This document shows positions 10,983-26,969 of a DNA stretch of 64,000 bases, in pieces (position 1 is the stretch's first letter; every line of letters starts with the position of its first letter). The DNA is from Candidatus Eiseniibacteriota bacterium (lineage in GTDB: Bacteria; Joyebacterota; Joyebacteria; Joyebacterales; Joyebacteraceae). The position numbers and the translations under genes are program-made. The DNA lies in the NCBI GenBank assembly GCA_030609365.1, contig JAUWCJ010000001.1, positions 1,266 to 65,265 of the forward strand, read 5' to 3'. The notes below the pieces were generated by a model that made no database searches, was not told where the DNA came from, and worked only from the letters and a program-made list of their open reading frames with translations.

Positions 10983-11040
10983 GCGCAGGTCTCGGACACC
11001 CAGGCACGGCCTCGATAGCGAATAGTATCTGTAGGGTTCG

Positions 11041-11068
11041 CGCGGCTCCCATAGATGGGGGCCGCGCA
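11041..11068 (+). terminator. Candidate terminator hairpin downstream of nifU
   Basis: GCGCGGCTCCCAT-AG-ATGGGGGCCGCGC forms a near-perfect 11-13 bp stem. The downstream T-run is weak (ggtttcc). Confidence 0.35.
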
Positions 11069-11166
11069 TTGCGTACCGGTTTCCTGTTGACAGAGAGAGT
11101 GGTCCTGTCGTAGTCGGTGTTCACAGGTGATTATTCCGCACGCGCGCCACAATCAAGGAGGGCAGG

Positions 11167-11493
11167 ATGCAGGACGCACCCCAAGTGACTCCGCAGGGCG
11201 AAGTGCAGCCAGCTCCCACGACTTCACCGATGAAGCCGCATCGTGGAGGGGCGATTCTCGCACTCGGCATCATCGGGATCGTGGTCTGCTTCATCACGGG
11301 CATCATCGCCTGGGTGATGGGCTCGAGCGACCTCAAGGAGATGGACGCCGGGATCAGGGACAAGAGCGGCTACTCGCTGACGAAGGCCGGGATGATCTGC
11401 GGGATCATCGGTGTGATCCTGTCGGTCCTCTCTATCTTCTGGGTGGTATTCGTCGTCGGTCTGTCCAGCGTGCTCGGAGCCGTGGGCGCCTAG
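11167..11493 (+). CDS. DUF4190-like small membrane protein
   Basis: Two hydrophobic helices with Gly-rich GIIGIVVCFITGIIAWVMG / GMICGIIGVILSVLSIF and a Pro/Thr-rich N-terminus. Confidence 0.5.
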   Translation: MQDAPQVTPQGEVQPAPTTSPMKPHRGGAILALGIIGIVVCFITGIIAWVMGSSDLKEMDAGIRDKSGYSLTKAGMICGIIGVILSVLSIFWVVFVVGLSSVLGAVGA

Positions 11494-11503
11494 GCGCGGA
11501 GCA

Positions 11504-11923
11504 TTGAGACTGACGTTCATCAGAGGACAGCCCGCGTTCCCGGTGCCGCGCGCGGCGCTCCTGACGGGAGCCTTGCTGCTCGGACTCGGCATCGTAGCGG
11601 CCGCGCTGCCCGGAATAGAAGATGGCCCCGTCGTCTGCCCATTCAGGGCGGTGACGGGGCTTCCCTGTCCCACGTGCGGCCTGACAAGGGTCGCTCACTC
11701 GCTCATGCGCCGCGACCTCGGCGGAGCGCTCGCCATCAATCCGTTCGACACGCTCTTCTTTCTCGTCGCGGTGCCGCTCTTCACCGGGCTGTGGGTGGCG
11801 AATCTGGCGGGCGGGTTCGCCGTCCGGATCTCGATGTCACGGGCGGAACGGCGGGTCGCCTGGGCGCTTCTCGTGGCCGCGGCGCTCGCCAACTGGGCCT
11901 ACGTTCTCATGACCCACCGCTAG
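11504..11923 (+). CDS. DUF2752-like membrane protein
   Basis: Motif CPFRAVTGLPCPTCGLTR (CPxxxxTGxxCPxCGxTR) followed by TM segments. The start codon is 10 nt after the DUF4190 gene. Confidence 0.5.
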   Translation: MRLTFIRGQPAFPVPRAALLTGALLLGLGIVAAALPGIEDGPVVCPFRAVTGLPCPTCGLTRVAHSLMRRDLGGALAINPFDTLFFLVAVPLFTGLWVANLAGGFAVRISMSRAERRVAWALLVAAALANWAYVLMTHR

Positions 11924-11933
11924 GGCGCCGTCG

Positions 11934-14282
11934 CTAGGGCGTCTTTCCACCGTAGAGCTCGCGATAGACCTCCGAGTACAGAAACACGCGCCTGACGTAG
12001 TCGATGGTCTGCGAGTACCCGATGTCCTCGACGAACACGTCGCTGTCGCGCTCACCCCCGTACCCCCACCACCGCTCGGACGCGTCGGGTCCACCATTGT
12101 AGGCCGCCAGCGCCCTCACGACGTCACCGTCGAACTGGTCGAGCTGCACGGAGAGATACTCCGTCCCGAAGCGGATGTTGGTCTCAGGGTCAAGCAGATG
12201 GGCGGTCCTGAACCCGCGGTGTCCGAGCCTTCTCGCGACCCATCTGCCCGTGGTGGGCATGATCTGCGAGAGTCCGCGGGCGCCGACCCACGAGACGGCG
12301 TCGGGCTCGAACAGGCTTTCCTGTCTTATGAGCGAGTACTCAATATGGGGATCGATGCCCCTCTCGGCGCACTCGCGCTCGATGATGTCCCCGAAGTGCG
12401 TCGGACAGATGCGCTTCCGCAGGTAGACCGGCGCGTCGCTCAACTCCTCGGCCGGGGACATGGCCAGGATCCTCTCCGCAAGCAGGATCGCGCGCTTATG
12501 CAGGCCGACACGCTCACAGTAATCGACGAGGATATCAAGAGAGCGCGGGTCTCTGCCGACCACATCCATGAGATGGGTCAGTTCGGTCAGGGCCGCGCTT
12601 CGCATGTGAAGGGCCTGAAGCGCGTCGGCCCGTCTGAAGGCCGGCTCACTGTAGATGCTCTGTCTGAGCGCCACCCTGCCCACGGGGAAGTAGACCTCAT
12701 CGTACCACTCCGCCAGCCATGCGGCGAAGTCAAGTGCCTCGCCTCCCCACATCGCCGGGCGCGCATGGCGGTAGGTCGCTTCTGCGCGCGCGGGTCTGCG
12801 GCTCGCCGCCCTCCCGCCGTGCGACAGCTCTCCGTGCCCGAGTTCTCGGAGACGCGCGCGCGCGCGTGCCCCATAGTAGGAATCTCTCGCTGCCTCCACC
12901 GCTTCGACGTAGGTCGAGACGGCATCGTCCGCCCCGGAGAGACGCTCTCTGCACTTGCCCGACCAGAAGAGAGCGCGAGCCTCATTCTCACCTGATCCCG
13001 AGGCGAAGATGTCCGCGAACACGACCGCCGCCCCAGAGTAGTCCTTCTGCTTGTAGAGGCACAGACCCGCCCGGAAGAGCGCGTCGCCGGCCCGCGCAGA
13101 CGTTGAGTAGGCACCGACGATACGTCGAAACTCGTCGCCTGCCTCCTCCCATCTCCCCTTCTCTTCAAGGAGCCTGGCCTTCTCCCAGAGCAACTCAGGG
13201 GCGGCCTCTCTGAGGGGGTTCTCCACGGCGAATCGCTCGTAGGTGGCCAGACTCTCCTCCAGCTTGCCGCTCGCGCGGAGGCAGTAGGCGAGCTTCGACC
13301 ACGCCAGGTCGTAATACTCGGCATCGGGTCCGAACTCCGTCGCGTCCTCGTATTCCCTGGCCGCCGTTCTGAAGTTGCCGAGGCGCTGATGGCTTCGTCC
13401 CAGGAAGTAGCTCGCTTCGTGCTCGAACTCCTTCCGCTCGTCGTGGCGGATGTAGTAGGTGAAGAACTCGGCGGAGTCGTTGTAGAGCTTGCGGTTGTAG
13501 AGAACCAGCCCCTGATGGTACCTGTCGGTGAACGCCCGCGAGATCTTGCGCCCTCTCTTGAGCGCGTCGTGGGAGTGTCGAGACCTGGGGAAATCTTCGA
13601 CCGCGGTCGCGTAGCTTCGACTGGCCGCGTCCTCGTCGCCTCTCTTCTCGTAGGCGCGGGCCATCCTGTAGTGCGCAAGTGCGCGCTCGTCGTAGCTTTC
13701 CGCCGCAGCGAGAAAGAGCCGATACCACTGCAGCGCCATATCGTAGTCGTCTGCCTCTTCGTAGAGCCCCGCGAGCTTGAGGATGGCAGGCGCGTCGAAC
13801 GCGGTGTCTACACCATCGTCGATGACGGTGCGAAGCTCCTCCATCGCGAGATCGGGCTGGTCCATTCCAGCGTGACACGCCGCCAGGCGGAGTCGGACGA
13901 GGTCCTCGACCTCACTGAGCTCCGTCAGTGAGAGGGAGTAACCGACGAGCGCGGGCTCCCACTCCTCCAGATACTCGTGCGACCGTGCCATCAGGAAGAG
14001 GCTCCGGGCAGCGAGATCAACGAAGTACGCCGCCGGCGAAGCGCCGGCGTTTGACTCTATGGCATCTATCGTCAGTGCGTAGAGGTCGGCCGCGTCGCCA
14101 TAGTTCCCATGGCTGAAGCGCACATCCGCCTCAGAGAACAGCGAGTCCGCGCGGGCGCGCCAGGACGCGTGCGCCGGCACGCCGGATAGCAGAGCCACGA
14201 GCACAAGGACGGCGACCGCGCAGATGGTCGATGGCGAGGAGCGGGCTCTCGTCGTGACGATGGGTCGAAGGCGTCTTCTCAT
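11934..14282 (-). CDS. slt: Soluble lytic murein transglycosylase (Slt70-like, TPR-rich N-domain + SLT catalytic domain)
   Basis: C-terminal SLT motifs ESLFEPDAVSWVGARGLSQIMP (catalytic Glu) and AYNGGP. There is an N-terminal signal peptide and a long superhelical TPR-like region. Confidence 0.8.
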   Translation of the reverse strand: MRRRLRPIVTTRARSSPSTICAVAVLVLVALLSGVPAHASWRARADSLFSEADVRFSHGNYGDAADLYALTIDAIESNAGASPAAYFVDLAARSLFLMARSHEYLEEWEPALVGYSLSLTELSEVEDLVRLRLAACHAGMDQPDLAMEELRTVIDDGVDTAFDAPAILKLAGLYEEADDYDMALQWYRLFLAAAESYDERALAHYRMARAYEKRGDEDAASRSYATAVEDFPRSRHSHDALKRGRKISRAFTDRYHQGLVLYNRKLYNDSAEFFTYYIRHDERKEFEHEASYFLGRSHQRLGNFRTAAREYEDATEFGPDAEYYDLAWSKLAYCLRASGKLEESLATYERFAVENPLREAAPELLWEKARLLEEKGRWEEAGDEFRRIVGAYSTSARAGDALFRAGLCLYKQKDYSGAAVVFADIFASGSGENEARALFWSGKCRERLSGADDAVSTYVEAVEAARDSYYGARARARLRELGHGELSHGGRAASRRPARAEATYRHARPAMWGGEALDFAAWLAEWYDEVYFPVGRVALRQSIYSEPAFRRADALQALHMRSAALTELTHLMDVVGRDPRSLDILVDYCERVGLHKRAILLAERILAMSPAEELSDAPVYLRKRICPTHFGDIIERECAERGIDPHIEYSLIRQESLFEPDAVSWVGARGLSQIMPTTGRWVARRLGHRGFRTAHLLDPETNIRFGTEYLSVQLDQFDGDVVRALAAYNGGPDASERWWGYGGERDSDVFVEDIGYSQTIDYVRRVFLYSEVYRELYGGKTP

Positions 14283-14289
14283 GTCGTTC

Positions 14290-16065
14290 CTAAGGCTCCT
14301 CGTGATGTCGGCTGTCGTCCAGACCCAGAAGAGCTGCGACGTCGCCCGCGGTACTGGCGGCGACGGCTTCGTTCGCCAGTGAGACGGCGGTGTCCAGATC
14401 GACGTCCCTGATCGCCTTCTTCGTCGCGGGCAGTCGGCCGTTGGAGACGCTGAACTCCCGCAGCCCGAGACCGATCAGAAGCGGAACGTAGGCGGGCGTG
14501 CCGGCCATCTCCCCGCACAGGGAGATGGGCTTCCCCGCCGAGGCGGCGCCTTCGACGGATCGCGCAATGAGGGCGAGCACAGAGGGGTCGTGTGGCCTGT
14601 AGAGACGGCTCACGTACGAGCTGCCGCGATCGACGGCGAGCGTATACTGCACGAGATCGTTCGTCCCTATGCTCAGGAAGTCACACTCCGCGGCGAGGCG
14701 GTCGGCAACCATCGCCGCCGACGGTATCTCTATCATTGCGCCGGCCTCGATGTTCTCGTCGAAAGCGACGCCTTCACTCCTGAGCTGGCCCTTCGCCTCG
14801 TCCAGCCTCCCGAGCGCCTGACGCAGCTCGTCCACCGAGGAGATCATGGGCACCAGAATACGAACGGCTCCATGGGCGCTCGCGCGGAGGATCGCCCTGA
14901 ACTGAGCCAGCAGGAGGTCCGGGCGATCGAGAAGCACGCGCGTCGAACGGTAGCCGAGGTTGGGGTTGTGCTCGCGAAACGGGTTCTCGGAACCGACGAA
15001 CTTGTCGCCTCCGACGTCCAGCGTTCTGATGGTGACCGGCTTGCCGGCCATGGGCTCGACCGCTTCTCGGTACGCCGCGAACTGTGCGTCCTCGTCCAGG
15101 AACAGATTCGCCGACATGAATATCATCTCACTGCGAAGAAGCCCGATGCCGTCGGCGCCCAGCTCCGCGGCCTGCCTGGCTTCATCGCCCGACGCGATGT
15201 TGCTCATGAGCGCTATCTCTGTCCCATCGCGCGTGACCGACGGAAGCTCCAGGACCGAAGCCAGCTCGTGGCGCTCCCGGATCTCCTCCTCGCGCATGCT
15301 CTCGTAGCGCGCCCGGGTGTCGGTGGACGGATCGACGATGGCCACGCCCAGGGCGCCGTCCAGTGCGATGAGCTCTCCCGTGCGGACCCTCTCGAGGATT
15401 CCTGCGACCCCGGCCATCGCAGGGACGCCGAGCGAGCGAGCCAGGATCGCCGCGTGCGACTCCGTGCCCCCGAGCTCGGTGACGAACCCCAGTATCCGTC
15501 CTCGGTCCATCGAGGCGGTGTCGCTCGCCCTGAGTTCCCTCGCGACCAAGATCATGGGCTGCGACAGCGGGCAGTGCGCCCAGACTCCGAGCATCCGCTC
15601 GATGACACGCTGTCCGATGTCGCTGACGTCGTAGGCCCGGTCGCGCAGATAGCGGTCATCCGCGGACGAGAGGACCGCCGTCACGCGCTTCATCTCCTCG
15701 GCGACGGCCGCCTCGGCGTTGACGTGGCTGTTTCTGATGATGTCGAGAATCGCCTCGAGTATCGACGGGTCCTCGAGGATCATCGAGTGCGCCAGGAATA
15801 CGTCACCTTCGCCCTGACCCAGTTGCTTAGACACGTGCCTGGCGTCGCGAAGGAGCTCCGTCTTAACCAGCGCGACGGCGTCGCGAAGCCGCGCGATCTC
15901 GCCGTCTACCTCGGAAGCGTCGATCGTGCGCACCTCGACCTCGTCCAGGATGTCACCGTAGACGAATGCCGGGGCCATCGCGATGCCGGGTGAGACCGGT
16001 GTGCCGTGCAGAACGACACGGTCCTCGGTGTCAGGCGTTTCACTGCCGCGTGAGTTCACTGACAT
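14290..16065 (-). CDS. ptsI: Phosphoenolpyruvate--protein phosphotransferase (PTS enzyme I)
   Basis: PEP-utilizing enzyme phospho-His region (..GGTESHAAILARSLGVPAMAG..) and a C-terminal PEP-binding TIM-barrel with ISLCGEMAG. No HPr or EII genes are present in the window. Confidence 0.85.
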   Translation of the reverse strand: MSVNSRGSETPDTEDRVVLHGTPVSPGIAMAPAFVYGDILDEVEVRTIDASEVDGEIARLRDAVALVKTELLRDARHVSKQLGQGEGDVFLAHSMILEDPSILEAILDIIRNSHVNAEAAVAEEMKRVTAVLSSADDRYLRDRAYDVSDIGQRVIERMLGVWAHCPLSQPMILVARELRASDTASMDRGRILGFVTELGGTESHAAILARSLGVPAMAGVAGILERVRTGELIALDGALGVAIVDPSTDTRARYESMREEEIRERHELASVLELPSVTRDGTEIALMSNIASGDEARQAAELGADGIGLLRSEMIFMSANLFLDEDAQFAAYREAVEPMAGKPVTIRTLDVGGDKFVGSENPFREHNPNLGYRSTRVLLDRPDLLLAQFRAILRASAHGAVRILVPMISSVDELRQALGRLDEAKGQLRSEGVAFDENIEAGAMIEIPSAAMVADRLAAECDFLSIGTNDLVQYTLAVDRGSSYVSRLYRPHDPSVLALIARSVEGAASAGKPISLCGEMAGTPAYVPLLIGLGLREFSVSNGRLPATKKAIRDVDLDTAVSLANEAVAASTAGDVAALLGLDDSRHHEEP

Positions 16066-16110
16066 TGCCTCTTCCTCAGATCGTCGCGTGACGACGAGCC
16101 TATGGACGCC

Positions 16111-17490
16111 CTAAGACCGGACCTTCTTCAACGCCTGGAGGGCCGCCATCGCGACCGGGTCCCAAACGGGTGAGAAGGGCGGAGCATAGCTCATGTCGAT
16201 GTCCGCGAGGTCTCTGACCGTCATCTTCGCGTGGAGCGCCGCAGCGATCGTGTCGATCCGCTTCCCCGCTCCTTCTCTTCCGATGATCTGACCGCCGAGC
16301 AGTCGCCCGCCATCGGGCTCGAAGACCAGTTTGACGTGAACCGCCCCGGCGCCCGGATATGCGTGCGCCTTCGAGAGGGACCTGATCCGGATGGAAGTCG
16401 CCGCCAGCCCCTCTTTGGATGCCGCGCGTTCAGTCAGACCCGTCTGCGCAGCCTCGAGATCGAACACCTTCGCGATGTTCGTCCCTGCGACGCCCCCGAA
16501 CCGGGCGCTGCCCCCGACCGCGTTCTCGCCGGCGAGCTTGCCCTGCTTGTTCGCAGTGGTGCCCAGCGGGATCCACACCGGCCGGCCCGTAACCACGTGA
16601 TTCGCCTCGGAGCAGTCCCCGGCGGCAAGAACGGAAGGCTCGCTCGTCACTTGGCGCGCATCCACCTTGATGGCCCCAGTGGCGCCCAGCTCCACGCCGG
16701 CCGCTGTGGCCAGCCCCACGGCGGGGCGGACGCCGACGGACACCAGCGCGAGGTCGGCCTCGAGCCTCTGCCCTCCTGCCAGCACATAGCCCAGCCCTGA
16801 GGAGCCGTCTCGCGGCTCGAACCCCTCGACGCTCGTCTCCTTCCGCACGCTCACTCCCTTGGCAAGAAGCTCGCGCTCCACCAGCTCGCTCATGTCGGGA
16901 TCGAACGTCGGCAGAACCGTCGGAAGCAGCTCGATGACGGTGACCGTGATGCCCCGTGACGCGAGCGCCTCGGCCATCTCAAGACCGATGTAGCCCGCTC
17001 CCACGATCGTCGCTTTCTTGATGCCGCCCGATTCCACCCGCTCGCGCAGACGCTCTCCGTCCGCCAGCGTACGAAGCGTGGCCACTCCGGGGATGTCGAT
17101 CCCGGGGAGCGGCGGCTTCACGGCCACGGCGCCGGTCCCGAGCACCAGGGCATCGAACGAGAGACTGGCGTCCCCCCCGTCGGGTCCCTGGAACGTCACT
17201 GTCCGGCCGACCGGGTCCAGAGCCGCCACGGGGGTATTGAGCCGGATGTCCATGTGCCGCTCGTTCCGGAAGAAGTCCGCTTCGTACTGGACCAATTCCT
17301 CCCTGCTCGGGATCAGACCGGACACGAAGTACGGGAGGAGGCACGCGCTGTACGACACGTCTCCGCCCTTTTCGAACACGACGATCTCGACGTCCGGTCG
17401 GAGACGTCTCGCACGGCTCGCAGCGCTCATACCGGCCGCGACGCCTCCAACCACGACCAGTCGTCCTCCCTCTCGCATCGCGGGTGGCAT
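16111..17490 (-). CDS. FAD-dependent pyridine nucleotide-disulfide oxidoreductase (CoA-disulfide reductase / NADH oxidase family)
   Basis: N-terminal FAD fold VVVGGVAAGMSAASRARRL, a single redox Cys in SYSACLLPYF (the CoADR/Nox SxxxC(G)LPY signature), a second GxGxxG (IVGAGYIGLE), and a C-terminal dimerisation domain. Confidence 0.8.
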   Translation of the reverse strand: MPPAMREGGRLVVVGGVAAGMSAASRARRLRPDVEIVVFEKGGDVSYSACLLPYFVSGLIPSREELVQYEADFFRNERHMDIRLNTPVAALDPVGRTVTFQGPDGGDASLSFDALVLGTGAVAVKPPLPGIDIPGVATLRTLADGERLRERVESGGIKKATIVGAGYIGLEMAEALASRGITVTVIELLPTVLPTFDPDMSELVERELLAKGVSVRKETSVEGFEPRDGSSGLGYVLAGGQRLEADLALVSVGVRPAVGLATAAGVELGATGAIKVDARQVTSEPSVLAAGDCSEANHVVTGRPVWIPLGTTANKQGKLAGENAVGGSARFGGVAGTNIAKVFDLEAAQTGLTERAASKEGLAATSIRIRSLSKAHAYPGAGAVHVKLVFEPDGGRLLGGQIIGREGAGKRIDTIAAALHAKMTVRDLADIDMSYAPPFSPVWDPVAMAALQALKKVRS

Positions 17491-17648
17491 GCGGTCCCTG
17501 CCTTTCTGTGGTTCTGCTGACGTTCGATGCCGCCGCGGCGGACTTCACTACGTTCAAACGAGTAGCACATCGGGCCCCCGTCTGCAATACCGGCGGCTGC
17601 TGGGCCTAAGCGCAACGATGTGAGTTGTGATTCCGCAGCAAGCTGAAG

Positions 17649-17897
17649 CTACTCGTCGCACTCCTGGCACGCCTTGATCGCGGCGCGCAGACGCTCGTGG
17701 ACGTCCTTGGGAAGGACCTTCCCGCAGGTCTGTCTGTGCAGGATGATCGTGCGCTCGAACGTGTGGACGAGCGCCTGTGCCTTCTCGCAGTGCTCGATGT
17801 GCAGCATGAACTCGACCTCGAGTTCGGCATCAAGCTCACCGTCGAAGTGTTCCGAGAGGCACTGAACGAACTTCTTGCAGTCGTCTACGTGTGACAC
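17649..17897 (-). CDS. Small cytoplasmic Cys/His-rich anti-sigma factor (zf-HC2/RsrA-like, divergent)
   Basis: The 82-aa protein has no TM segment. It carries C7, C13, the FDGELD motif (as in YLDGEL), HIEHC and a C-terminal CQEC. It resembles ZAS anti-sigma factors, but the second Cys of H-x3-C-x2-C is Ala. Confidence 0.5.
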   Translation of the reverse strand: MSHVDDCKKFVQCLSEHFDGELDAELEVEFMLHIEHCEKAQALVHTFERTIILHRQTCGKVLPKDVHERLRAAIKACQECDE

Positions 17898-18020
17898 CGG
17901 CCTGCGGTCCTTTCGCTCGACTGCCCGTCGCCGTCGCCGACCGGCCCTGATGACCGGCCGGCAACAGCGTGGATATCCCTGTGGAGCTTACTGCGAATCT
18001 CTCTTGTGAGAGGACCCGGA

Positions 18021-19964
18021 CTACTGAACGGGTTCGTCCTCCGAACGTCCGCCCATGTGCTTCGCCAGGAACCTCTCCGCGTCACCATAGAACCTAAGCC
18101 TGTTCTCAGGCTTGGCAAACCCGTGCCCCTCATCCTCGAAGACGATGTACCCGACCTCGAGGCCGTTGGCCTTCATAGCCTCGACGAACTGGTCGGACTC
18201 CGCCTGCACGACGCGCACGTCGTTGGCGCCCTGCGCGACGAGCATGGGGATCTTCACCTGGTCGACGCTGAACAGAGGTGAACGTGATCTCAGGAATTCC
18301 TCTTCCGTCCTCGGGTCGCCCACCCGCTTGTACATCATCTCGATCATCGTGCTCCAGTAGGGCGGGATCGTTTCGAGGAAGCTGATGAGATTGCTGGGCC
18401 CCATCATCGGAATGGCACAGCAGAAGAGGTCGGGCGTGAAGGTCGCGCCGGCGAGCGCCGCGTAACCACCGTACGATGCGCCGTAGATGGCGATGCGCTC
18501 GGGATCGGCGATGCCCTTGTCGATGGCCCAGTTGACGGCGTCGGTGAGGTCGTTCTGCATCGTGCCGCCCCACTCTTTGTCACCGGCGTTCAGGAACTCC
18601 TTGCCGTAGCCCGTCGAGCCGCGGAAGTTCACCTGCAGGCAGACGTAGCCACGGTTCGCCAGCCACTGCGCCTCGGGGTTGTAACCCCAGTTATCTCTGG
18701 CCCAGGGACCGCCGTGAACGTTCAGGACCAGCGGTAAATTCCGCCGCGCCACGCCCGAAGGATAGGTGATGTAGCCGTGGATGGTGAGTCCGTCGCGCGA
18801 CGTGAACGAGATGGGCTCGATGGGCACCAAGTTGTAGCCCTCGAGGTCCGGCTTGTGCACGAAGAGGAACGTGCCCTCCTTCGTGTTGCGGTCGTAGCTG
18901 TAGAACGGCACCGGGCCGTCGTCCTTGCTGAAAGCCACGATCCAGGTGTCGTAGTCGTTGTCGTAGCTCGTGATACTGAAGTCGCCGCTGTCCAGCTTCT
19001 CTATCGCCGCGAAGTCGTCCGCGACGGCGTCGTCCAGGATCTTCCACTCGTTCTTGGCCTTCGTGAACGCCACGGCCTCTATCTCGTAGGTGTCCGGATT
19101 GACCATGACGTCGCTGACGTCGTAGATCGGGTCCTCGGCCATGATCGTAAGCTCGCGCGTCTCGAGGTCCAGCCTGACGAGACGGCCCGTGTTGGCGTTT
19201 CGCGAGTCGATCATGTACAGCGATCCGCCGTCCTTGGTGAAGGCGAGCGGACTGCTGACCATGTTGTCCTCGTCGCCCCACGTGATGAGCGTCTCCCACG
19301 TAGCGGCGGCGGGATCCTCACGATAGAGCAGCTTGGTGTCGCCCGTCGGTCCCATAGCGAGCGCCCCACGAACGTCGAGGTTGAAGTCCGTGATCCATCC
19401 GAGGATGTTCCCGGGGTTCCTGGCCACGAGTGTGAGTTCGCCCGTGTCCAGCTCGAGACGGTAGACGTCGTGAAGGCGAGGGTCCTGTTGGTTCATCGAG
19501 ATGACCATCGTGTTCGGGTGGTGCTTGCTGTAGTCCAGGACTCGGACCTGCACGCCCTCGAAGGGCGTGAGCTCGCTGACCTCCCCGCTCTCAATGTTCA
19601 CGGAGTAGAGAAGCCAGTTCTCGTCGCCGCCGGCGTCCTGTAGATAGATGATGTGGTTGCTGTCCTGAGCCCAGAAGAAACGGAACACACCGCGGTTGTC
19701 GTCGTGCGTCACCGCGCGGTCGTCGTCCTCGCCTATGGTCTTGACCCAGACGTTGAGCACGTCATCGACGGGAGCGATGTATGACATCAGCTCGCCGCTC
19801 GGAGATATCCTCGCGCGGGCTCTCTCGGGGTTGCCAAAGAGGATGGTGCGGGGAATCAACTCCACATCACCGCCGCCACCGCACGACGTCAACAAGACGG
19901 CGGCGCCGACGAGAATCACGGCGGCAAGAACAACTGCCACGGGTCCTACGTGCTTCTTGTTCAT
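18021..19964 (-). CDS. S9 family serine peptidase (prolyl oligopeptidase/dipeptidyl-peptidase type), secreted
   Basis: Signal peptide MNKKHVGPVAVVLAAVILVGAAVLLTSC, an N-terminal beta-propeller region and a C-terminal alpha/beta hydrolase with nucleophile elbow GASYGGY. Asp and His regions follow (..VAQGANDVRV.., ..EDEGHGF..). Confidence 0.85.
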   Translation of the reverse strand: MNKKHVGPVAVVLAAVILVGAAVLLTSCGGGGDVELIPRTILFGNPERARARISPSGELMSYIAPVDDVLNVWVKTIGEDDDRAVTHDDNRGVFRFFWAQDSNHIIYLQDAGGDENWLLYSVNIESGEVSELTPFEGVQVRVLDYSKHHPNTMVISMNQQDPRLHDVYRLELDTGELTLVARNPGNILGWITDFNLDVRGALAMGPTGDTKLLYREDPAAATWETLITWGDEDNMVSSPLAFTKDGGSLYMIDSRNANTGRLVRLDLETRELTIMAEDPIYDVSDVMVNPDTYEIEAVAFTKAKNEWKILDDAVADDFAAIEKLDSGDFSITSYDNDYDTWIVAFSKDDGPVPFYSYDRNTKEGTFLFVHKPDLEGYNLVPIEPISFTSRDGLTIHGYITYPSGVARRNLPLVLNVHGGPWARDNWGYNPEAQWLANRGYVCLQVNFRGSTGYGKEFLNAGDKEWGGTMQNDLTDAVNWAIDKGIADPERIAIYGASYGGYAALAGATFTPDLFCCAIPMMGPSNLISFLETIPPYWSTMIEMMYKRVGDPRTEEEFLRSRSPLFSVDQVKIPMLVAQGANDVRVVQAESDQFVEAMKANGLEVGYIVFEDEGHGFAKPENRLRFYGDAERFLAKHMGGRSEDEPVQ

Positions 19965-20007
19965 CTTCCCTCCCTGCAGCTAAACATGGGTTCTAAGGAC
20001 CGACCGC

Positions 20008-20694
20008 TCAGGACCTGCCGTTCATCCGAGCGGCGACCTCATCCGCTTCAGTTCCGTGGTCGAAGTAGCTCGACAGTCTTTGTCTCAAGAACAGACGCGC
20101 CCGGTGAAGCCTCGACTTCACCGCGGGGATGGAGAGCCCCAGCGCGTCAGCGGTGTCGTTCGTCGAGAGACCGTGCACGTCTCGCATGAGGAAGACGATG
20201 CGGTTGTCCGGGTCGAGCTCGTTGACGTGCCGCACGAGCACGTCGGAGAGCTCGTTGTTCATCACATCAGCGCGGGGATCGTTCGTCCAGTCGGCCAGGT
20301 CCCTGCTGACGTCGCCCTCTTCCAGCTCTACGGGCTGATCCAGGGAAACGGTGTCCAGCTTCTTCTTGCGGAGCCTCATCAGGCTTTCGTTGTAGGCGAT
20401 CCGGTACAGCCACGTTGAGAAACGCGCCTCCTCGCGGAACCCCGGCAGTGCCTTGAACGCCTTGATGAATACTTCCTGAAGGCAGTCCTCGGCGTCCTCC
20501 TGGTTCCCGAGCATCTTGAGACACAGCCCGTAGATCTTGGCCTCGTTCCGCTCCACGAGTTCCCCGAACGCGTCGGCGTCTCCCGCCTTGGCGCTCCGGA
20601 CCAGTTCGTTGTCGGAAGGAAGCTTCTGGGCCGTCATGTCGGCTCCCGAAGACGTGACCGAGTAAAGGAACGTCCGGCTACCACCGGCGGTCAT
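20008..20694 (-). CDS. RNA polymerase ECF-type sigma-70 factor
   Basis: Region 2 (..FGELVERNEAKIYGLCLKMLGN..DCLQEVFIKAFKALPGF..FSTWLYRIAYNESL..) and region 4 (..VHGLSTNDTADALGLSIPAVKSRLHRARLFLR..). Confidence 0.85.
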   Translation of the reverse strand: MTAGGSRTFLYSVTSSGADMTAQKLPSDNELVRSAKAGDADAFGELVERNEAKIYGLCLKMLGNQEDAEDCLQEVFIKAFKALPGFREEARFSTWLYRIAYNESLMRLRKKKLDTVSLDQPVELEEGDVSRDLADWTNDPRADVMNNELSDVLVRHVNELDPDNRIVFLMRDVHGLSTNDTADALGLSIPAVKSRLHRARLFLRQRLSSYFDHGTEADEVAARMNGRS

Positions 20695-20703
20695 GGCCGG
20701 TGG

Positions 20704-21183
20704 TCAGTACCAGTCTCCGCCGATCGCGCGCGTTCCGAACTCCTCGCGCGCGATCTGGGCAACGAGTCGGGGCACCGCGTCTGCAACGACGTCCGACTCG
20801 ATCGTGTCTCCCGGGCTCTCGCCGAGCTCTATCGCGTAGATGGATATCTCCAGCGGGATACCGATATCCTTTGCGCCCTCCAGGTGGACGGTCGCGCTGT
20901 ACTCCGTGTCGCCACGACCCTGGGCTCGAGGAACGAGATCCAGATCGGACAGCCCCAGCTTCCTCAGTTCCCCGACGTCGCCTTCGCCGTTCCTGATGCA
21001 GTCCACGACCACGACCTTGTGATAGCCGGCCGCGATCTCGAAGAGGTCCATCGCCGTGTCGTACGCCTCAACGATATCGACATCCGGATCCGCGAGCATG
21101 GTGTACAGACCGCGCGCCACCTCCAGCCCGACGCGCTGGCCCACGAACCCCTGACTACCAAGCCCCAGGATGAGAGTTCTCAT
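20704..21183 (-). CDS. Hydrogenase maturation protease homolog (HybD/HycI/FrhD family, peptidase A31-like)
   Basis: It aligns by eye with E. coli HybD: MRTLILGLGSQGFVGQRVGLEVARGL vs MRILVLGVGNILLTDEAIGVRIVEAL. The conserved Asp (VVVVDCI) and His (ATVHLEG) are present, but the first metal ligand Glu is Gln. There is no hydrogenase large subunit in the window. Confidence 0.55.
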   Translation of the reverse strand: MRTLILGLGSQGFVGQRVGLEVARGLYTMLADPDVDIVEAYDTAMDLFEIAAGYHKVVVVDCIRNGEGDVGELRKLGLSDLDLVPRAQGRGDTEYSATVHLEGAKDIGIPLEISIYAIELGESPGDTIESDVVADAVPRLVAQIAREEFGTRAIGGDWY

Positions 21184-21232
21184 CGTCCTCCGCCCCTACC
21201 TTGTGACACGCCGGCCTACTACCGCCGGTTGC

Positions 21233-22861
21233 CTACGCCAGAAGTTCTATCTTTCTCTCTACCGTCGCGGCGCGTCTGTACTCCGGCAGCAACATCGGCG
21301 AGACATTCGTCGGCTCGACGCCCGCCGCTTTCAGAGCCGCATGGTAGTTCTTCAGATGATCGAGACCGAGGCCACCAGCGGTCTTGATGCCCGCCGCCTG
21401 GGCCGCGGCAGCCACTCCGGCCCGCCGCCCAAAGACTACCACGTCCAGGAGCGAGTTGCCCATGAGCCGGTTAGTGCCGTGTATGCCGCCCGCGACCTCG
21501 CCGGCCGCATAGAGGCCGGGAACGGGCGTTTCGCACCGCTCGTTGATCTCGAGGCCACCGTTCTGGTAATGCTGCGTCGGGTAGATGAGAATCGGGTGCT
21601 TCGCCATGTCGATCCCGAACCGCTCGTACTGGCGGTACATCGCCGGGACGCGCGCCTTGACGGCGCCCTCGCCGAGCTTCTTCTCAATGACGACGGTGTC
21701 CAGCCACACGGCGGGCTGACCGGACGGCGTGACAACGCCCTTCTTTCGTCCCAGGCACTCGCGAATGACGGCCGCCGCCTCGACGTCTCTGGTCTCCAGC
21801 TCGTAGACGAACCGGTCGCCTTCCGTGTTCGTGATCTGACCACCGATGCTCCGGACCTTCTCGGTCACAAGAAGACCGAGGATCTGCTCGGGATAGGCCG
21901 CGCCCGTCGGGTGGTACTGGATCGTGTCGAGGTACTGGAGGGGTGCGCCCACCCGATAGCCAAGCACGAGCCCGTCGGCCGTGGCGCCGTAGTGATTCGA
22001 GGTCGGAAAGCCCATGACGTGAAGCCGCCCACCACCGCCGGTAGCCAGGATCGTTGTCTTCGCCCTGACGATGAGATACTCCTGCGTCTCCATATTGTAG
22101 AGGACCGCGCCCGTCACTCTGTCGCCGTCGGTCAGAAGCTCGTAGACGGCGGCGAACTCCACCAGCGGGACGTCACGGTTGAGCATCTCGTCCTTGAGTG
22201 TCTTCATTATCTCACCACCCGTGAAGTCGCGCGCGGCGTGCATCCTCTTTCTGGAGGTGCCTCCGCCGTGGATGGTGATCATGGTGCCGTCGCTCTCCTT
22301 GTCGAACATCACGCCGAGCTTCTCGAGCCAGGCGAGCGCTTCGGGAGCGTCCATGACGAGCGCCTTCGCCAACTCGGGGTCGTTCTTGTAGTGCCCGCCG
22401 CCCAGAACGTCGAGGTAGTGGATCGCGGGGGAATCGTTGGGCTTGTCGGCACCCTGGATGCCGCCCTGCGCCATGACGGTGTTGGAATCGCCCAGGCGCA
22501 GCTTAGTGACCACAAGCACGTTGGCGCCCTGCTCCTGCGCCACGAGCGCCGCGGCCGCACCGGCGCCGCCGCCACCCACGATCAGAACGTCCACGTCGAA
22601 GTCGACCTTCGAGAGATCGAACCCGTCCGGATCCAGCCCGCTGTAGGCCTCGAAGACCCTGGCGTACTCGGTGGGCGTGCGCTCGCCCTTTGACGGACCG
22701 ACTCTCAGCTCACTGAAGACCTCATCCTTGTAGTCCGGATGGAAGCCCTCGAGGAGTTCCTGCTTGGCGTCAGCGGAGAGAAGCGGGAACTCCTCGTCCA
22801 GCCTCCGCTCGCGCGTCGCTTCGACACGCTTGATCAGCTCGAGCAATTCCGGTGTGTACAA
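21233..22861 (-). CDS. Succinate dehydrogenase/fumarate reductase flavoprotein-subunit-like (SdhA/FrdA/TfrA family)
   Basis: N-terminal FAD fold VDVLIVGGGGAGAAAALVAQEQGANV, FAD-binding/capping domain motifs (..HYGATADG.., ..RLMGNSLLD..), ~540 aa. It is adjacent to an Fe-S subunit gene. Confidence 0.8.
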   Translation of the reverse strand: MYTPELLELIKRVEATRERRLDEEFPLLSADAKQELLEGFHPDYKDEVFSELRVGPSKGERTPTEYARVFEAYSGLDPDGFDLSKVDFDVDVLIVGGGGAGAAAALVAQEQGANVLVVTKLRLGDSNTVMAQGGIQGADKPNDSPAIHYLDVLGGGHYKNDPELAKALVMDAPEALAWLEKLGVMFDKESDGTMITIHGGGTSRKRMHAARDFTGGEIMKTLKDEMLNRDVPLVEFAAVYELLTDGDRVTGAVLYNMETQEYLIVRAKTTILATGGGGRLHVMGFPTSNHYGATADGLVLGYRVGAPLQYLDTIQYHPTGAAYPEQILGLLVTEKVRSIGGQITNTEGDRFVYELETRDVEAAAVIRECLGRKKGVVTPSGQPAVWLDTVVIEKKLGEGAVKARVPAMYRQYERFGIDMAKHPILIYPTQHYQNGGLEINERCETPVPGLYAAGEVAGGIHGTNRLMGNSLLDVVVFGRRAGVAAAAQAAGIKTAGGLGLDHLKNYHAALKAAGVEPTNVSPMLLPEYRRAATVERKIELLA

Positions 22862-22871
22862 CTCGTGCCCC

Positions 22872-23555
22872 CTAGCCTCTCGGCTCCATGTCTCGGTTGT
22901 TGTAGAGCTCGGCCAGGTCGGCCTGCTTCATCTTCGTCAACTTGTCCATCTCATCGTTGAACGTGCCGTCCGCCATCTCCTTGAGCCGGTCCTTCAGGTG
23001 CGGCGCCTCGGCGGCTACGTGACGCGAGTAGAGCCTGCGGCACAGAAGCGCGACCTGATACTGCACGATCTCCGCGGGACATCTCGAAGCGCAGAGCCCG
23101 CAGAGGATGCAGTCGAAGGAGAGGTCGGCGGCCTTTGCGATGTCGCCCCTGAGCGCGGCCTGGATGTACTCCATGACCTCGATGTCCTGAGGACAGGCCT
23201 TCGTGCACGTGTTGCAGGAGAGACAGCGGAAGACCTCCGGGTAGAGCGAGAGTATCGCATCGGCGGTCGGTTTCAGGTCCTCGATGTCGTAGGTCGCCTT
23301 GTTGCCCGGGAAGAACGGGATCTCGGCGAGGTACATCTCGTCCTGCACGACCTCCTGACAGGCGAGGCCGACCTTGAGACGGTAGTCGTCCTTTGTTCGG
23401 TAGACGGTTCCGCAGGCGCCGCAGAACGCTCCCCTGCACCCGCAGCCCCTCACGAACCGGTAGCCCGCGTACTCCATGGCCTTCATGATGGTGAGGTCGC
23501 CGGGGACCTCGTAAGGCTTGCCCATCACGTAGATGGTCACCATCTGTTCTGCCAT
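22872..23555 (-). CDS. Succinate dehydrogenase/fumarate reductase iron-sulfur-subunit-like (2Fe-2S + two 4Fe-4S motifs)
   Basis: C-x4-C-x2-C (CRGAFCGAC) 2Fe-2S motif plus two CxxCxxCxxxCP motifs (CLSCNTCTKACP, CILCGLCASRCP). Confidence 0.75.
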   Translation of the reverse strand: MAEQMVTIYVMGKPYEVPGDLTIMKAMEYAGYRFVRGCGCRGAFCGACGTVYRTKDDYRLKVGLACQEVVQDEMYLAEIPFFPGNKATYDIEDLKPTADAILSLYPEVFRCLSCNTCTKACPQDIEVMEYIQAALRGDIAKAADLSFDCILCGLCASRCPAEIVQYQVALLCRRLYSRHVAAEAPHLKDRLKEMADGTFNDEMDKLTKMKQADLAELYNNRDMEPRG

Positions 23556-23641
23556 CGTAGCTTCTCCCCCTTGTTTCCAGTCGGGACGTGGTCGCCGTCC
23601 GCGGACCGGCCGCCCGAGCCTTCGGGAACCGACCGTGTAGT

Positions 23642-24067
23642 CTAGGCGACCTTCTCCTGTTCCTTCAAGCCGAGCTCCAGAGACCCGAGCTCCTTGATCG
23701 TATCGACGAAATCGGACATCACGTGGACCAGCTTCTCTCCCTCGGCAGCGGAGATCCAGTCGAGCTGCAGACGCTCAGGATCTATGCCCACGTCCTCAAG
23801 CGTGCGCTTGAGGAACTGAACGCGGCGCATGGTCTTGTGGTTCCCCTCCTCGTAGTGACAGTCGCCGGGATGGCAGCCGCCGACGAGCACGCCGTCGGCA
23901 CCTTCCCGAAACGCCCAGAGGACGTGCTGAGGGTCGATGCGCCCCGTGCAGTTGACTCGCACGACCACGCCGTTCGGCGGGTACTGTTTCCGCGAGGTGC
24001 CGGCGAGGTCCGCGCCGGCGTACGTGCACCACTTGCAGAAGAAACAGACGATTCTCGGTTCGAACAT
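23642..24067 (-). CDS. mvhD: Methyl-viologen-reducing hydrogenase delta-subunit-like protein (MvhD)
   Basis: Motifs CFFCKWCTYAGAD, ..VNCTGRIDP.. and GADGVLVGGCHPGDCHYEEGN match the MvhD family. Its start lies 1 nt after the HdrA stop. Confidence 0.8.
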   Translation of the reverse strand: MFEPRIVCFFCKWCTYAGADLAGTSRKQYPPNGVVVRVNCTGRIDPQHVLWAFREGADGVLVGGCHPGDCHYEEGNHKTMRRVQFLKRTLEDVGIDPERLQLDWISAAEGEKLVHVMSDFVDTIKELGSLELGLKEQEKVA

Positions 24068-24068
24068 G

Positions 24069-26033
24069 TCAGACCTCCAGAGCGGCCGAGACCATTTTGT
24101 AGAGTTGCTCGTCCGTCAGGTTCTTCTGCTGAGCAGAGCCGGACGGGCAGGCGGCGATACACGCTCCGCAGCCCTCGCAGATCGCTTCCTTGATGCGTGC
24201 GACTTTCTTCTCGTCATCGAATTCCGCCGCGTCGTATGGACAGACCGAGATGCACACACGGCACCCGGCGCACGTGTCCTCGTCGATCACGGCGATAACC
24301 GGCTCGCGGTGGTACTCGGTCTCCGCGAAGAGAGCGGCGACCTTGCTCGCGGCGGCCGACGCCTGCGCGACGGACTCCGGAATGTCCTTGGGCCCCTGGG
24401 CCGAGCCCGCGAGATAGAACCCCGGTGTGAGGCTCTCTACGGGCCGAAGCTTCGGGTGCGCCTCGGACAGGAAGCCCCACTCGTCCGTGTGGATCTTGAG
24501 CATGCTGGCGAGCTTCGCGGCGGCCTCGTTCGGAACGGTGGCCAGGCCGAGCACGGCCATGTCAGCCGCGATCTCGATCTTCCTGCCGGAGAGTGTGTCG
24601 ACTCCCCAAACCATGACACGCCCGTCCTCCTCGAAGATCTTCGAGACCTTGCCGCGGATGTAGAGGACGTCGTCCTCCTCGGCCGCGCGGGTGTAGAATT
24701 CCTCGTAGCCCTTTCCGCCCGTCCGGACGTCCATGTAGAAGACGTACGCCTGGCCGTCGTGGACCTTGTGCCTATAGAGCATGGCGTGCTTCGTGAGATA
24801 CATGCAGCAGATCTTGGAGCAGTACGGCAGGTGGTTTTCGGTGTCCCTCGAGCCGCAGCAGGTCAGGAACACGACCTCGGAAGGTACTTCGCCGTCGGAG
24901 GGTCGCAGGACTTCTCCTCCGGTCGGGCCGGACGCCGAGAGCATCCTCTCGAACTGGAGGCTTGTGATGACGTCGGCGTACTTCCCGCCACCGTACTCGC
25001 CCAGGTTCTCAATCGGGTAGAGATCGTAGCCTGTGGCAACAATGATGGCCCCGACCTCCTCCTCAATGAACTCGTCCTTCTGCTCGTAGTCGATGCAGTC
25101 GAGAGGACAGACCTTCGCGCAGATACCGCATTTCCCGTCCTTGAGGAAGTAGGTGCAGTGCTCGGCATCGAGGACCGGTTTGTTCGGCACCGCCTGCGGG
25201 AAGGGAGTGTAGATGGCCTTGCGGTCGGCCAGCTGTTCGTCGAACTCGGACGGCGTCTTGGCCGGGCACTTCTCCACGCACAGACCGCAACCGGTGCAGA
25301 CGTCGCGATTGACGTAGGCGGCCTTCTTCCTGATCTTGACCTTGAAGTTGCCGACGTAGCCGCTGACGTCGTCAACCTCCGAGTAGGTCATGAGCCTAAT
25401 CTTCGGGTGCTGCGCGACCTCGACCATCTTGGGGGTCATGATGCACTGCGAACAGTCGAGCGTCGGGAAGGTCTCGGAGAGCTGCGCCATGTGGCCGCCG
25501 ATGGACGCCGACTTCTCGACGAGAATGACCTCGTGCCCCGCGTTGGCAACGTCGAGCGCCGCCTGGATCCCCGCAATGCCGCCACCCACCACCAGAGCCC
25601 GGGGGGTCATGGGTACTGATATGGGCTCGAGCGCTTCGTCGAGCCGGGCCTTCTCTATCATCACCTTGATGGTTCTGATGGCCTTGCTTGTCGCCGCTTC
25701 CTTGTCGCCCTGATGCACCCAGCTGCACTGCTCGCGGATGTTGGCGATCTCGACCTGATACTGGTTCATCCCCGCCGTCATCCCCGCCCGCCTGAACGTC
25801 GCCTCGTGAAGGGTCGGCGAACACGCCGCCACGATCACGCCGGTCAGGTTGTGCTTCTTGATGGCATCCTTCACCAGGTTCTGACCGGGATCGGAGCACA
25901 TGTAGGTGTAGTCGGTGGAGTAGGCCACTCCCGGATAGTCGGCCAGCTCCTCCGCCACACGCTTGACGTCCACCACGCCGGCGATGTTGGTCCCGCAGTG
26001 GCAAACGAAGACCCCAATGCGTTCTTCCATCAC
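24069..26033 (-). CDS. hdrA: Heterodisulfide reductase subunit A (HdrA, FAD/Fe-S)
   Basis: N-terminal GVFVCHCGTNIAG signature, a FAD-binding GxGxxG (VVGGGIAGIQAAL), multiple CxxCxxCxxxCP ferredoxin motifs, 654 aa. Confidence 0.85.
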   Translation of the reverse strand: MMEERIGVFVCHCGTNIAGVVDVKRVAEELADYPGVAYSTDYTYMCSDPGQNLVKDAIKKHNLTGVIVAACSPTLHEATFRRAGMTAGMNQYQVEIANIREQCSWVHQGDKEAATSKAIRTIKVMIEKARLDEALEPISVPMTPRALVVGGGIAGIQAALDVANAGHEVILVEKSASIGGHMAQLSETFPTLDCSQCIMTPKMVEVAQHPKIRLMTYSEVDDVSGYVGNFKVKIRKKAAYVNRDVCTGCGLCVEKCPAKTPSEFDEQLADRKAIYTPFPQAVPNKPVLDAEHCTYFLKDGKCGICAKVCPLDCIDYEQKDEFIEEEVGAIIVATGYDLYPIENLGEYGGGKYADVITSLQFERMLSASGPTGGEVLRPSDGEVPSEVVFLTCCGSRDTENHLPYCSKICCMYLTKHAMLYRHKVHDGQAYVFYMDVRTGGKGYEEFYTRAAEEDDVLYIRGKVSKIFEEDGRVMVWGVDTLSGRKIEIAADMAVLGLATVPNEAAAKLASMLKIHTDEWGFLSEAHPKLRPVESLTPGFYLAGSAQGPKDIPESVAQASAAASKVAALFAETEYHREPVIAVIDEDTCAGCRVCISVCPYDAAEFDDEKKVARIKEAICEGCGACIAACPSGSAQQKNLTDEQLYKMVSAALEV

Positions 26034-26039
26034 GCCTCC

Positions 26040-26966: not shown

Positions 26967-26969
26967 GGT

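Follow-up and report, generated by a model that had tools for sequence, protein, structure and literature searches.

A candidate ECF sigma factor and soluble anti-sigma factor separated by a peptidase gene in Candidatus Eisenbacteria, and their predicted target promoters

The stretch of DNA analysed here (the window) comprises 64,000 nucleotides (nt) from a Candidatus Eiseniibacteriota bacterium, referred to below by the phylum name Eisenbacteria (GenBank assembly GCA_030609365.1, contig JAUWCJ010000001.1, positions 1,266 to 65,265 of the forward strand). On its minus strand lie, in this order, genes for an extracytoplasmic function (ECF) sigma factor, an S9 peptidase, an 82-amino-acid (aa) zf-HC2 protein and a flavoprotein disulfide reductase (Table 1). 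ORF calls, Pfam and NCBIfam confirm these four open reading frames, which a preliminary description of the region had read as a redox-sensing module after the model of SigR-RsrA. Our results point to a partly different circuit, in which the sigma factor and the 82-aa protein would be partners controlling the anti-sigma gene itself and the chaperone genes hsp20 and clpB. The window was compared with contigs numbered from L001, which include Eisenbacteria-type loci and metagenome loci of other phyla (L029-L111).

Table 1. Genes, predicted promoters and RNA structure discussed in the text (window positions unless a comparison locus is named).
Feature	Position	Strand	Remarks
ECF sigma factor, 209 aa	20008..20637 (maximal ORF to 20694)	-	Sigma70_r2, Sigma70_r4_2, TIGR02937
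Weak candidate sigma promoter CCGGAC-N17-CGTCT (uncertain)	20650..20677	-	directly before sigma Shine-Dalgarno sequence
S9 (acylaminoacyl-peptidase-like) lipoprotein peptidase	18021..19964	-	Peptidase_S9 164 bits
Family-type promoter of anti-sigma gene, GAACC-N17-CCTC (predicted)	18010..18035	-	overlaps peptidase stop codon
Conserved 18-bp G+C-rich RNA stem-loop	17929..17969	-	between anti-sigma promoter and start codon; no U-tract
82-aa soluble class-I anti-sigma domain protein, ZAS-derived, C7/H33/C37/A40	17649..17897	-	GTG start; zf-HC2
Reductase promoter-like block TTGCRG-N15-TGTGCTAMYC, non-ECF-family type	17558..17587	-	about 75 nt upstream of start codon
CoADR/NADH-oxidase family single-Cys flavoprotein disulfide reductase, 459 aa	16111..17490	-	Pyr_redox_2, Pyr_redox, Pyr_redox_dim
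clpB promoter GCAAC-N16-(TG)CATCAAA, i.e. GCAAC-N16-TGCATCAAA (predicted)	48612..48636	-	family-matrix score 19.7
clpB disaggregase, predicted regulon member	45923..48511	-	homologues named ClpB; Clp_N and AAA domains
hsp20 promoter, example (predicted)	L004:8318-8345		
HycI-like, 159 aa	20704-21183	-	marginal HycI match, 23.1 bits vs 23 cutoff
FAD_binding_2 flavoprotein	21233-22861	-	
2Fe-2S/4Fe-4S protein	22872-23555	-	
MvhD/FlpD	23642-24067	-	
HdrA-like	24069-26033	-	
HdrB-like CCG	26040-26966	-	
HdrC-like	26970-27413	-	

With 71.6 bits for Sigma70_r2, 52.8 bits for Sigma70_r4_2 and 113.6 bits for the sigma70-ECF model TIGR02937 (cutoff 42.9), the sigma factor has the features of an ECF (group 4) sigma-70 protein. 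The earlier assignment to this group therefore stands, and its start position should probably be revised: translation likely begins at the second ATG (20637), because a GGGAG Shine-Dalgarno sequence is found there and the relatives are called at 209 aa. Among solved structures the best match is SigW of B. subtilis (5wuq_A, E 1.5e-29), while a SigR fragment matches at 9e-5. The SigW equivalog models give 140.6 and 133.6 bits, which is under their cutoffs of 209 and 243.

The 82-aa protein matches zf-HC2 (PF13490) with 30.4 bits against a cutoff of 22.2, and no transmembrane segment, hydrophobic segment or signal peptide is found in it. Its homologues form 50 clusters with 56-90% identity, several of them named Candidatus Eisenbacteria, and the contig of one genome (L007) is 99% identical. 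Since nearly all of these homologues are 81-84 aa long, the ORF represents a real gene. A profile of the family finds RsiW as its best PDB match (5wuq_C, E 1.4e-5, residues 9-74 on 6-71), so the best matches of the sigma factor and of the 82-aa protein are chains of one crystal complex, SigW-RsiW 5wuq. RsrA is far behind (E 0.63 in the PDB, 22.4 bits with TIGR03988 vs a cutoff of 62.5). The AlphaFold2 (AF2) model is a four-helix bundle (helices 3-18, 24-36, 38-58 and 66-79), for which Foldseek returns RsiW at the top (probability 1.0, E 0.04), followed by MucA and RslA, all of them class-I anti-sigma domains. Both the profile and the four-helix fold are thus those of a class-I anti-sigma domain. 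Very probably, judging from these matches, the 82-aa protein is the cognate soluble anti-sigma factor of the window sigma, derived from the zinc-containing anti-sigma (ZAS) type. The earlier presumption of an anti-sigma role gains further support from the frequent adjacency of homologous pairs described below.

The zinc motif of the protein reads H33-x3-C37-x2-A40, preceded by a Cys at position 7, and the complete H-x3-C-x2-C motif is not present. Ala40 is invariant in 40 clade sequences, which agrees with the divergent ZAS motif described before. The clade shows no variation at H33, C37, A40, H54, H67 and C77 and hardly any at C7, while C13, C58 and C80 vary. Across the wider family C7, H33 and C37 do not change, and at least 90% of members have Cys at position 40; Ala at this position occurs solely in the window clade, P0051 and P0053. 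P0052 and P0054 retain CxxC. As P0052 too stands behind the S9 gene (L028), the loss of the Cys postdates insertion of the peptidase gene. In RsrA the trigger disulfide is formed by Cys11 with either Cys41 or Cys44, oxidation still dissociates the C41H or C44H single mutants, and it is the N-terminal Cys that determines disulfide sensing (PMC4960319). C7 and C37 are equivalents of RsrA C11 and C41 and both are conserved. Because RsrA tolerates the loss of C44, a thiol switch with a three-ligand zinc site would be chemically plausible in the Eisenbacteria protein. It is known that anti-sigma domains comprise mixed zinc and non-zinc groups (PMC7406223). The Ala40 lineages (window clade, P0051, P0053) carry His54, where most CxxC-keeping relatives have Tyr or Cys. 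We considered His54 as a substitute zinc ligand for Cys40 and rejected it on geometry, since the two positions are 14 residues apart on one predicted helix. Cys77, invariant in the clade, is present in just about a third of the wider family.

The gene order around the pair is HdrA-like, MvhD, Fe-S protein, FAD_binding_2, HycI-like, sigma, S9, zf-HC2, (hsp20), reductase, (PtsI) and SLT, and it is retained in every Eisenbacteria-type locus spanning the genes concerned, at identities as low as 39% for the anti-sigma, 67% for the sigma and 62% for the peptidase. Wherever an Eisenbacteria locus spans both, the sigma and 82-aa genes occur together without exception, parted each time by the 1944-nt peptidase gene. 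Consequently, the split layout is a character of the clade and no accident of one genome. Adjacency to and co-transcription with the sigma gene, which are usual for a ZAS gene, are not found here. It is important to note that the whole 15 kb is syntenic in the clade, and therefore adjacency alone says little on function.

The peptidase gene begins 43 nt past the sigma stop and has a strong Shine-Dalgarno sequence. Its product matches PF00326 and, in the PDB, the aminoacyl peptidase 5l8s (7e-53); the motifs GASYGG (Ser497), GANDVRV and EGHGF of the Ser-Asp-His triad are intact and relatives match the Tricorn_N propeller, as expected of family S9. A lipoprotein signal, L-T/A-S-C-G, is kept in 13 orthologues, which argues that the enzyme is exported, as the term "secreted" in the preliminary description implied. 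Sigma/anti-sigma loci in other phyla lack the peptidase. The two window genes belong to a co-inherited sigma/anti-sigma family, and the peptidase gene that parts them represents a lineage-specific insertion. A literature search for an ECF sigma with a prolyl oligopeptidase gave no match, and the ECF reclassification paper, its supplements aside, does not mention such a sigma/peptidase context.

A profile search among 1.84 billion representatives yielded 1079 relatives of the 82-aa protein, of which the best 150 are nearly all 75-125 aa long. Metagenome loci were collected with a profile from the narrower alignment A3. Among 80 such loci, 63 have an upstream gene on the contig, and in 49 of these a sigma gene lies directly upstream of the small ZAS gene; the same adjacency is seen in the individual loci L021-L023 and L029-L031. 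In contrast to the Eisenbacteria arrangement, which the preliminary description rightly found unusual, sigma and ZAS genes in other phyla are adjacent and often overlap. The sigma factors are 38-55% identical to that of the window (median 46%). The anti-sigma proteins (75-110 aa, 24-45% identity) share with the 82-aa protein its length, C7, H33, C37 and the promoter motif described below, and they differ from it in having an intact CxxC. Thiol or peroxide enzymes are the candidate targets, and the usual next gene encodes a thioredoxin (Trx)-fold oxidoreductase, OsmC or AhpC: among 33 same-strand genes at downstream positions +1 and +2 there are 10 glutaredoxin (Grx)/Trx-fold, 5 OsmC and 3 AhpC/TSA genes.

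An unbiased dyad search of 39 unique sigma-upstream regions from these phyla returned GTAAC(C)-N16/17-(G)CATC(C/T)AA, a motif that can be written G[T/A]AAC-N16/17-GCATC or, as a broad promoter code, GNNAC-N16/17-GCATC. Sites agreeing in at least 8 of 9 positions are found in 23 of the 39 regions, often immediately before the Shine-Dalgarno sequence or the ATG, and there are 24 matches where the rest of the loci would lead one to expect 2.4. We trained a matrix on these sigma-upstream sites only (the family matrix); it detects a second copy of the motif before all eight Trx-fold genes located downstream of the anti-sigma gene (scores 16-28), whereas the non-Trx neighbours score at most 12 and mostly below 7. 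Motif copies before both the sigma genes and the downstream Trx-fold genes make the family look thiol-stress related. We regard the GTAAC/GCATC-type motif as the predicted target promoter of the family and its regulon outside Eisenbacteria as one of thiol-redox functions. The sigma/small-ZAS family so delimited by comparison is widespread and so far uncharacterised, and it is defined here without a numbered ECF group. The Trx-fold genes with near-consensus promoters (L036, L051, L066, L075, L076, L084, L095 and L107) encode two-domain proteins with CxxC. The spacers of their promoters are strikingly alike, GAAACCTTTG...TTGCATCTAA, and resemble the hsp20 promoter of L015.

In Eisenbacteria sites of this type were found before three genes. 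The promoter of the anti-sigma gene reads GAACC-N17-GCATCTCA in relatives and scores 6.4-13.9 in L001, L002, L004, L011, L012, L014, L015 and L018 (in L018 only the -10 element is present). In the window its -10 element is degenerate, with CCTC for CATC at 18013-18010, a form shared with L009 and L010; a second matrix, trained on Eisenbacteria sites, still gives this site 12.5. Every locus with an intact hsp20 gene has a site between the anti-sigma stop and hsp20, with scores from 10.8 to 25.3 (L015 25.3, L017 17.4, L001 15.6, L004 14.9, L024 10.8), and two loci with hsp20 remnants keep sites of 11.5 (L016) and 6.8 (L018). The third site precedes clpB by about 100 nt, at a distance of 28 kb from the sigma locus, and is the top match of the family matrix on both strands of the 64 kb, with the runner-up at 12.9. 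Four other Eisenbacteria genomes, in which the flanks have diverged, conserve it equally far upstream of clpB. Matrix matches at 9909(+) and L001:16109 were rejected since they fall within coding sequence, and so was a site of L018 (11.0) inside the HycI-like gene, where the coding sequence is conserved. In the window and in three of the four relatives (L112-L115) clpB is divergent from a tilS-like gene (48872-50365). Between the anti-sigma stop and the hsp20 promoter there is an inverted repeat, GCAGTCTC-N5-GAGACTGC in L004 (L004:8250-8320, L001:8290-8335), the right arm of which touches the -35 element; it could be a terminator of the anti-sigma transcript or an operator.

No family-type site was found with the family matrix upstream of the sigma or peptidase genes in 12-13 loci. 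This suggests that both are constitutive or transcribed with upstream genes. In deep branches the sigma start follows the HycI-like stop by just 12-45 nt, so the sigma gene is probably read from the upstream transcript or from a weak promoter. Eight close relatives share RGAC-N16/17-YGTYT before the sigma gene, and this element is absent in deep branches. As a sigma promoter we set aside its RGAC-N17-YGTCT form, confined to close relatives and of background score with the family matrix, and it stays a weak candidate. Generic ECF patterns (GGAAC..CGT, GAAC..GTC, TGAAAC..CGT, GGAAT..GTT) have only coding-region or chance matches in 10000-26000. A sigma-70 promoter scan of 15900-21400 found no site, and terminator matches in the same interval are at chance level.

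Regarding known systems, the Eisenbacteria pair shares with SigH-RshA (C. glutamicum, Mycobacterium) and SigR-RsrA (S. coelicolor), both of ECF12, a soluble ZAS protein of about 80-100 aa with an N-terminal Cys ligand, and a cytoplasmic stress regulon of thiol-redox enzymes (here at the family level) and chaperones such as clpB. For C. glutamicum it is reported that housekeeping promoters transcribe sigH, that a SigH-dependent promoter serves rshA but not sigH, and that the regulon includes disulfide-stress and heat-stress genes, chaperones among them (PMC3489674). The arrangement predicted here is similar in that the anti-sigma gene would have its own sigma-dependent promoter and the sigma gene none. 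However, the ECF lineage is another one, with SigW and RsiW as best matches and the RsrA model far below its cutoff. The SigR-RsrA analogy of the preliminary description thus holds for the links of the wider family to Trx, OsmC and AhpC genes and fails for the partners themselves, neither of which belongs to the SigR/RsrA group. The Ala in place of the second Cys of CxxC, the 1.9-kb peptidase split and the phylum also set the Eisenbacteria pair apart. The SigR-RsrA promoter GGAAT-N18-GTT differs from GNNAC-N16/17-GCATC and has no intergenic match in 10000-26000, its lone match being inside the peptidase coding region. No Trx gene with the family motif was found in the window; Trx-fold targets occur only in the relatives from other phyla.

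SigW-RsiW of B. subtilis (PDB 5wuq, ECF30) offers the closest solved structures for both partners, and the 82-aa protein aligns with helices 1-4 of the RsiW cytoplasmic domain, including H-x3-C. RsiW sits in the membrane and is inactivated by regulated proteolysis, whereas the 82-aa protein corresponds to the cytoplasmic domain alone, without the last Cys, and has neither membrane anchor nor extracytoplasmic domain. The SigW promoter TGAAAC-N16-CGTA was not found in the intergenic regions here. Compared with the other-phyla family, Eisenbacteria are distinguished by the peptidase split, by a promoter before the anti-sigma gene only, where the relatives have an autoregulatory one upstream of the sigma gene, by Ala40 in most cases, and by hsp20 and clpB in place of thiol enzymes as predicted targets.

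We consider it somewhat more probable than its opposite that the locus encodes a cognate ECF sigma and soluble ZAS-derived anti-sigma, split by an S9 lipoprotein peptidase and wired to the anti-sigma gene, hsp20 and clpB. Such a circuit would most likely be functionally analogous to SigH-RshA/SigR-RsrA, closest in sequence to SigW-RsiW, and would respond to thiol-oxidative or proteotoxic stress in the cytoplasm. In unstressed cells the sigma factor would be sequestered by the 82-aa protein. Stress would inactivate the latter, most likely by oxidising the Cys7/Cys37 pair in a Cys-His-Cys site of three ligands, or alternatively through unfolding or proteolysis. The freed sigma would then transcribe promoters of the form G-N-N-A/T-C, N16-17, GCATC, which in Eisenbacteria would serve the anti-sigma gene (negative feedback), hsp20 and clpB. 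Sigma and peptidase would probably be made constitutively or from an upstream transcript, and the anti-sigma from its own sigma-dependent promoter followed by a stem-loop. The peptidase gene would have been inserted between the partners early in the Eisenbacteria lineage, and the lineage of the window would later have lost hsp20 with its promoter and weakened the -10 element of the anti-sigma gene, keeping the clpB promoter.

Several points speak against this reading. The loss of Cys40 removes a canonical zinc ligand, which makes both zinc binding and redox sensing uncertain, and RsiW binds SigW zinc-independently, its zinc motif being thought structural, not sensory (PMC7406223). The AF2 model of the 82-aa protein is of moderate confidence (pLDDT 69.5). 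The family matrix was trained on sites belonging to sigmas merely 38-55% identical to the window sigma. Random 64-kb sequences reach a mean maximum of 15.5 ± 2.4 with it (largest 19.8 in 30 trials), so the clpB score lies at their upper edge and the weight of this site rests on its conservation. One of the three predicted targets, hsp20, is deleted in the window and another, the anti-sigma promoter, is weakened by its CCTC, while the window has an intact sigma ORF, anti-sigma ORF and clpB promoter. Instead of the window sigma, a paralogue encoded elsewhere in the genome may read the motif. Finally, all functional statements made here come from comparative sequence analysis: gene identities, conservation, family relationships and motif positions are observed, and from them we infer the binding of sigma by anti-sigma, the sigma that reads the motif and the nature of the signal.

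The full model of the preliminary description, in which a SigR-RsrA-like anti-sigma is oxidised and frees a sigma with the reductase (and the peptidase) as main outputs, seems to us unlikely as a whole, and a redox module that includes the reductase is only partly supported. Thiol defence genes (Trx/Grx, OsmC, AhpC) are linked to the family elsewhere, HdrCBA-MvhD genes lie upstream, and the reductase gene always comes first or second after the anti-sigma gene. A larger deletion in L002, L003 and L011 leaves it 36-43 nt behind the anti-sigma stop, hence it is probably co-transcribed from the anti-sigma promoter there. In the window a family-type site, GTAGT-N17-GCATCGAA, is located 36 nt before the reductase start; it is weak (9.1), has a poor -35 element and is not conserved, most loci scoring at most 3. 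A search for ECF promoters upstream of the sigma and reductase genes had been proposed as a check of the module, and it gave no family-type site at the former and none consistently at the latter. Instead, 12 of 16 loci examined, including the deep branches L017, L018, L024 and L028, conserve before the reductase a block of another type. An unrelated promoter at the reductase had been named beforehand as evidence against the module, and this block comes near to it. Ancestrally hsp20 and a G+C-rich terminator-like hairpin intervene between the anti-sigma gene and the reductase, the 15-kb synteny makes adjacency weak evidence, and neither protein reaches the SigR or RsrA cutoffs. The reductase is thus a conserved neighbour, doubtful as a regulon member in the window and possibly one in some relatives. 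Redox sensing is a plausible idea in view of C7 and C37, which are retained, and of the family's thiol-redox regulon; the lost Cys40 weakens it, and so does the absence of a family-type promoter before the reductase.

It is more improbable still that the GCATC promoters of hsp20 and clpB are read by another sigma, sigma-32-like or an ECF paralogue, and that the window sigma has a different regulon, for example an envelope one with the peptidase. The sigma-32 consensus is TTGAAA-N13-15-CCCCAT, to which a -35 of TGAAA, a -10 of CAT and the spacing fit loosely; our view of the genome covers 64 kb, and sigma and peptidase genes have no family-type site. Yet in other phyla the motif precedes the family sigma genes, most often with GTAAC and not TTGAAA as its -35, as well as their Trx-fold neighbours, and in Eisenbacteria it precedes the anti-sigma gene of this very locus; to our knowledge RpoH is essentially proteobacterial. 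We give very little credence to the idea that the 82-aa protein has another role or partner and that its linkage to the window sigma is inherited synteny. The 1.9 kb between the genes and the incomplete zinc motif would fit it, but the concordant SigW and RsiW matches, the 49 adjacent pairs among 63 loci elsewhere, the strict co-occurrence in Eisenbacteria and the family-type promoter before the 82-aa gene do not. We hold it just as improbable that the S9 peptidase is a functional part of the pathway, for instance one that makes or destroys a periplasmic signal or processes a regulator, which would account for its place between the two genes. Its position is conserved clade-wide and tightly coupled to the sigma gene, but the enzyme is an exported lipoprotein and the anti-sigma has neither signal peptide nor membrane segment, the family outside the clade lacks the peptidase, and proteases are often passive members of stress operons.

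If the preferred reading of a cognate pair controlling the anti-sigma gene, hsp20 and clpB is true, an uncultured phylum gains a concrete candidate regulator of cytoplasmic stress with named promoters and targets. We also entertain, with more doubt than belief, that this ECF sigma is the principal regulator of cytoplasmic heat and oxidative (proteotoxic) stress in Eisenbacteria, in the role that sigma-32, HrcA or SigH has elsewhere. Its circuit would be rewired, with a soluble Cys-His-Cys anti-sigma as inhibitor, a sigma made constitutively along with the exported S9 peptidase, and feedback acting only on the anti-sigma gene behind its conserved 5' stem-loop. The same comparison gives a large ECF/ZAS family of uncultured phyla its predicted promoter code, GNNAC-N16/17-GCATC, and its predicted thiol-redox regulon, and the motif and thiol-redox association would aid annotation of many metagenomic genomes. 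The locus would be an example of operon rewiring, in which a foreign gene came between the partners, autoregulation shifted to the anti-sigma alone and a zinc ligand was lost. The reductase is a case for caution, as adjacency in a wholly syntenic region does not equal regulon membership.

As to the reductase protein, the single-Cys CoADR/Nox-type assignment agrees with our results. CoA-disulfide reductase (CoADR) model TIGR03385 gives 410 bits, under its cutoff of 578.8, and the best PDB match is NADH oxidase 6ruz (1e-107), followed by CoA-disulfide and persulfide reductases. The only Cys residues are those of the SYSAC motif and of the GDC FAD motif. The block before its gene has no other intergenic copy in the window; a second TGTGCTA (44087) is a chance match inside a 1539-aa ORF.

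The stem-loop before the anti-sigma gene is found in 16 of 17 loci with a sequence that differs in deep branches, and RNAalifold gives -38.5 kcal/mol. Across its 18 pairs there are 16 one-sided changes that preserve pairing, a single compensatory change and a single broken pair. On the opposite strand several of the G-U pairs would not match, which speaks for an RNA structure formed by the sense transcript. Rfam has no match for the stem-loop, and the 64-kb window contains no further copy. An RNA thermometer is unlikely with a stem of about -38 kcal/mol that does not cover the Shine-Dalgarno sequence, and so is a canonical terminator without a U-tract; its role may lie in mRNA stability or in insulation from the sigma-peptidase transcript. 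Another stem, CCACCGGC...GCCGGTGG (window 20674-20700), follows right after the HycI-like stop, also lacks a U-tract and overlaps the sigma start chosen in the preliminary description, the ATG at 20694.

In the lineage of the window about 0.9 kb is gone, comprising the hsp20 promoter, hsp20 and its G+C-rich terminator-like hairpin, and the junction is visible by comparison with L004. Partial hsp20 remnants survive in L010, L012, L016 and L018. The gene was deleted independently in several Eisenbacteria lineages, with coding remnants of different extent (L010:6290-6330, L012, L016, L018:6560-6700; window 17491-17648), and in L002, L003 and L011 the deletion took the reductase promoter block as well. 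Between hsp20 and the reductase a tandem unit of about 35 nt, GGGCGCCGCAGGGTAATGCGGCGCCGGTTCTCTAT, occurs in L004:8950-9230 and also in L005, L006 and L013. Its copy number varies among near-identical contigs, giving spacers of 1062 vs 1027 nt.

Directly upstream of the sigma gene lies a heterodisulfide-reductase-like cluster (window 20704-27413, minus strand). The gap between the HycI-like gene and the sigma gene is always 12-80 nt, and the two may be co-transcribed. On the other side, a gene for PtsI, enzyme I of the phosphotransferase system (window 14290-16065), follows the reductase gene after 45 nt and precedes a TPR/SLT lytic transglycosylase gene. No HPr or EII gene was noticed beside it. 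PtsI is missing at the corresponding position in L016, L017, L024 and L028.

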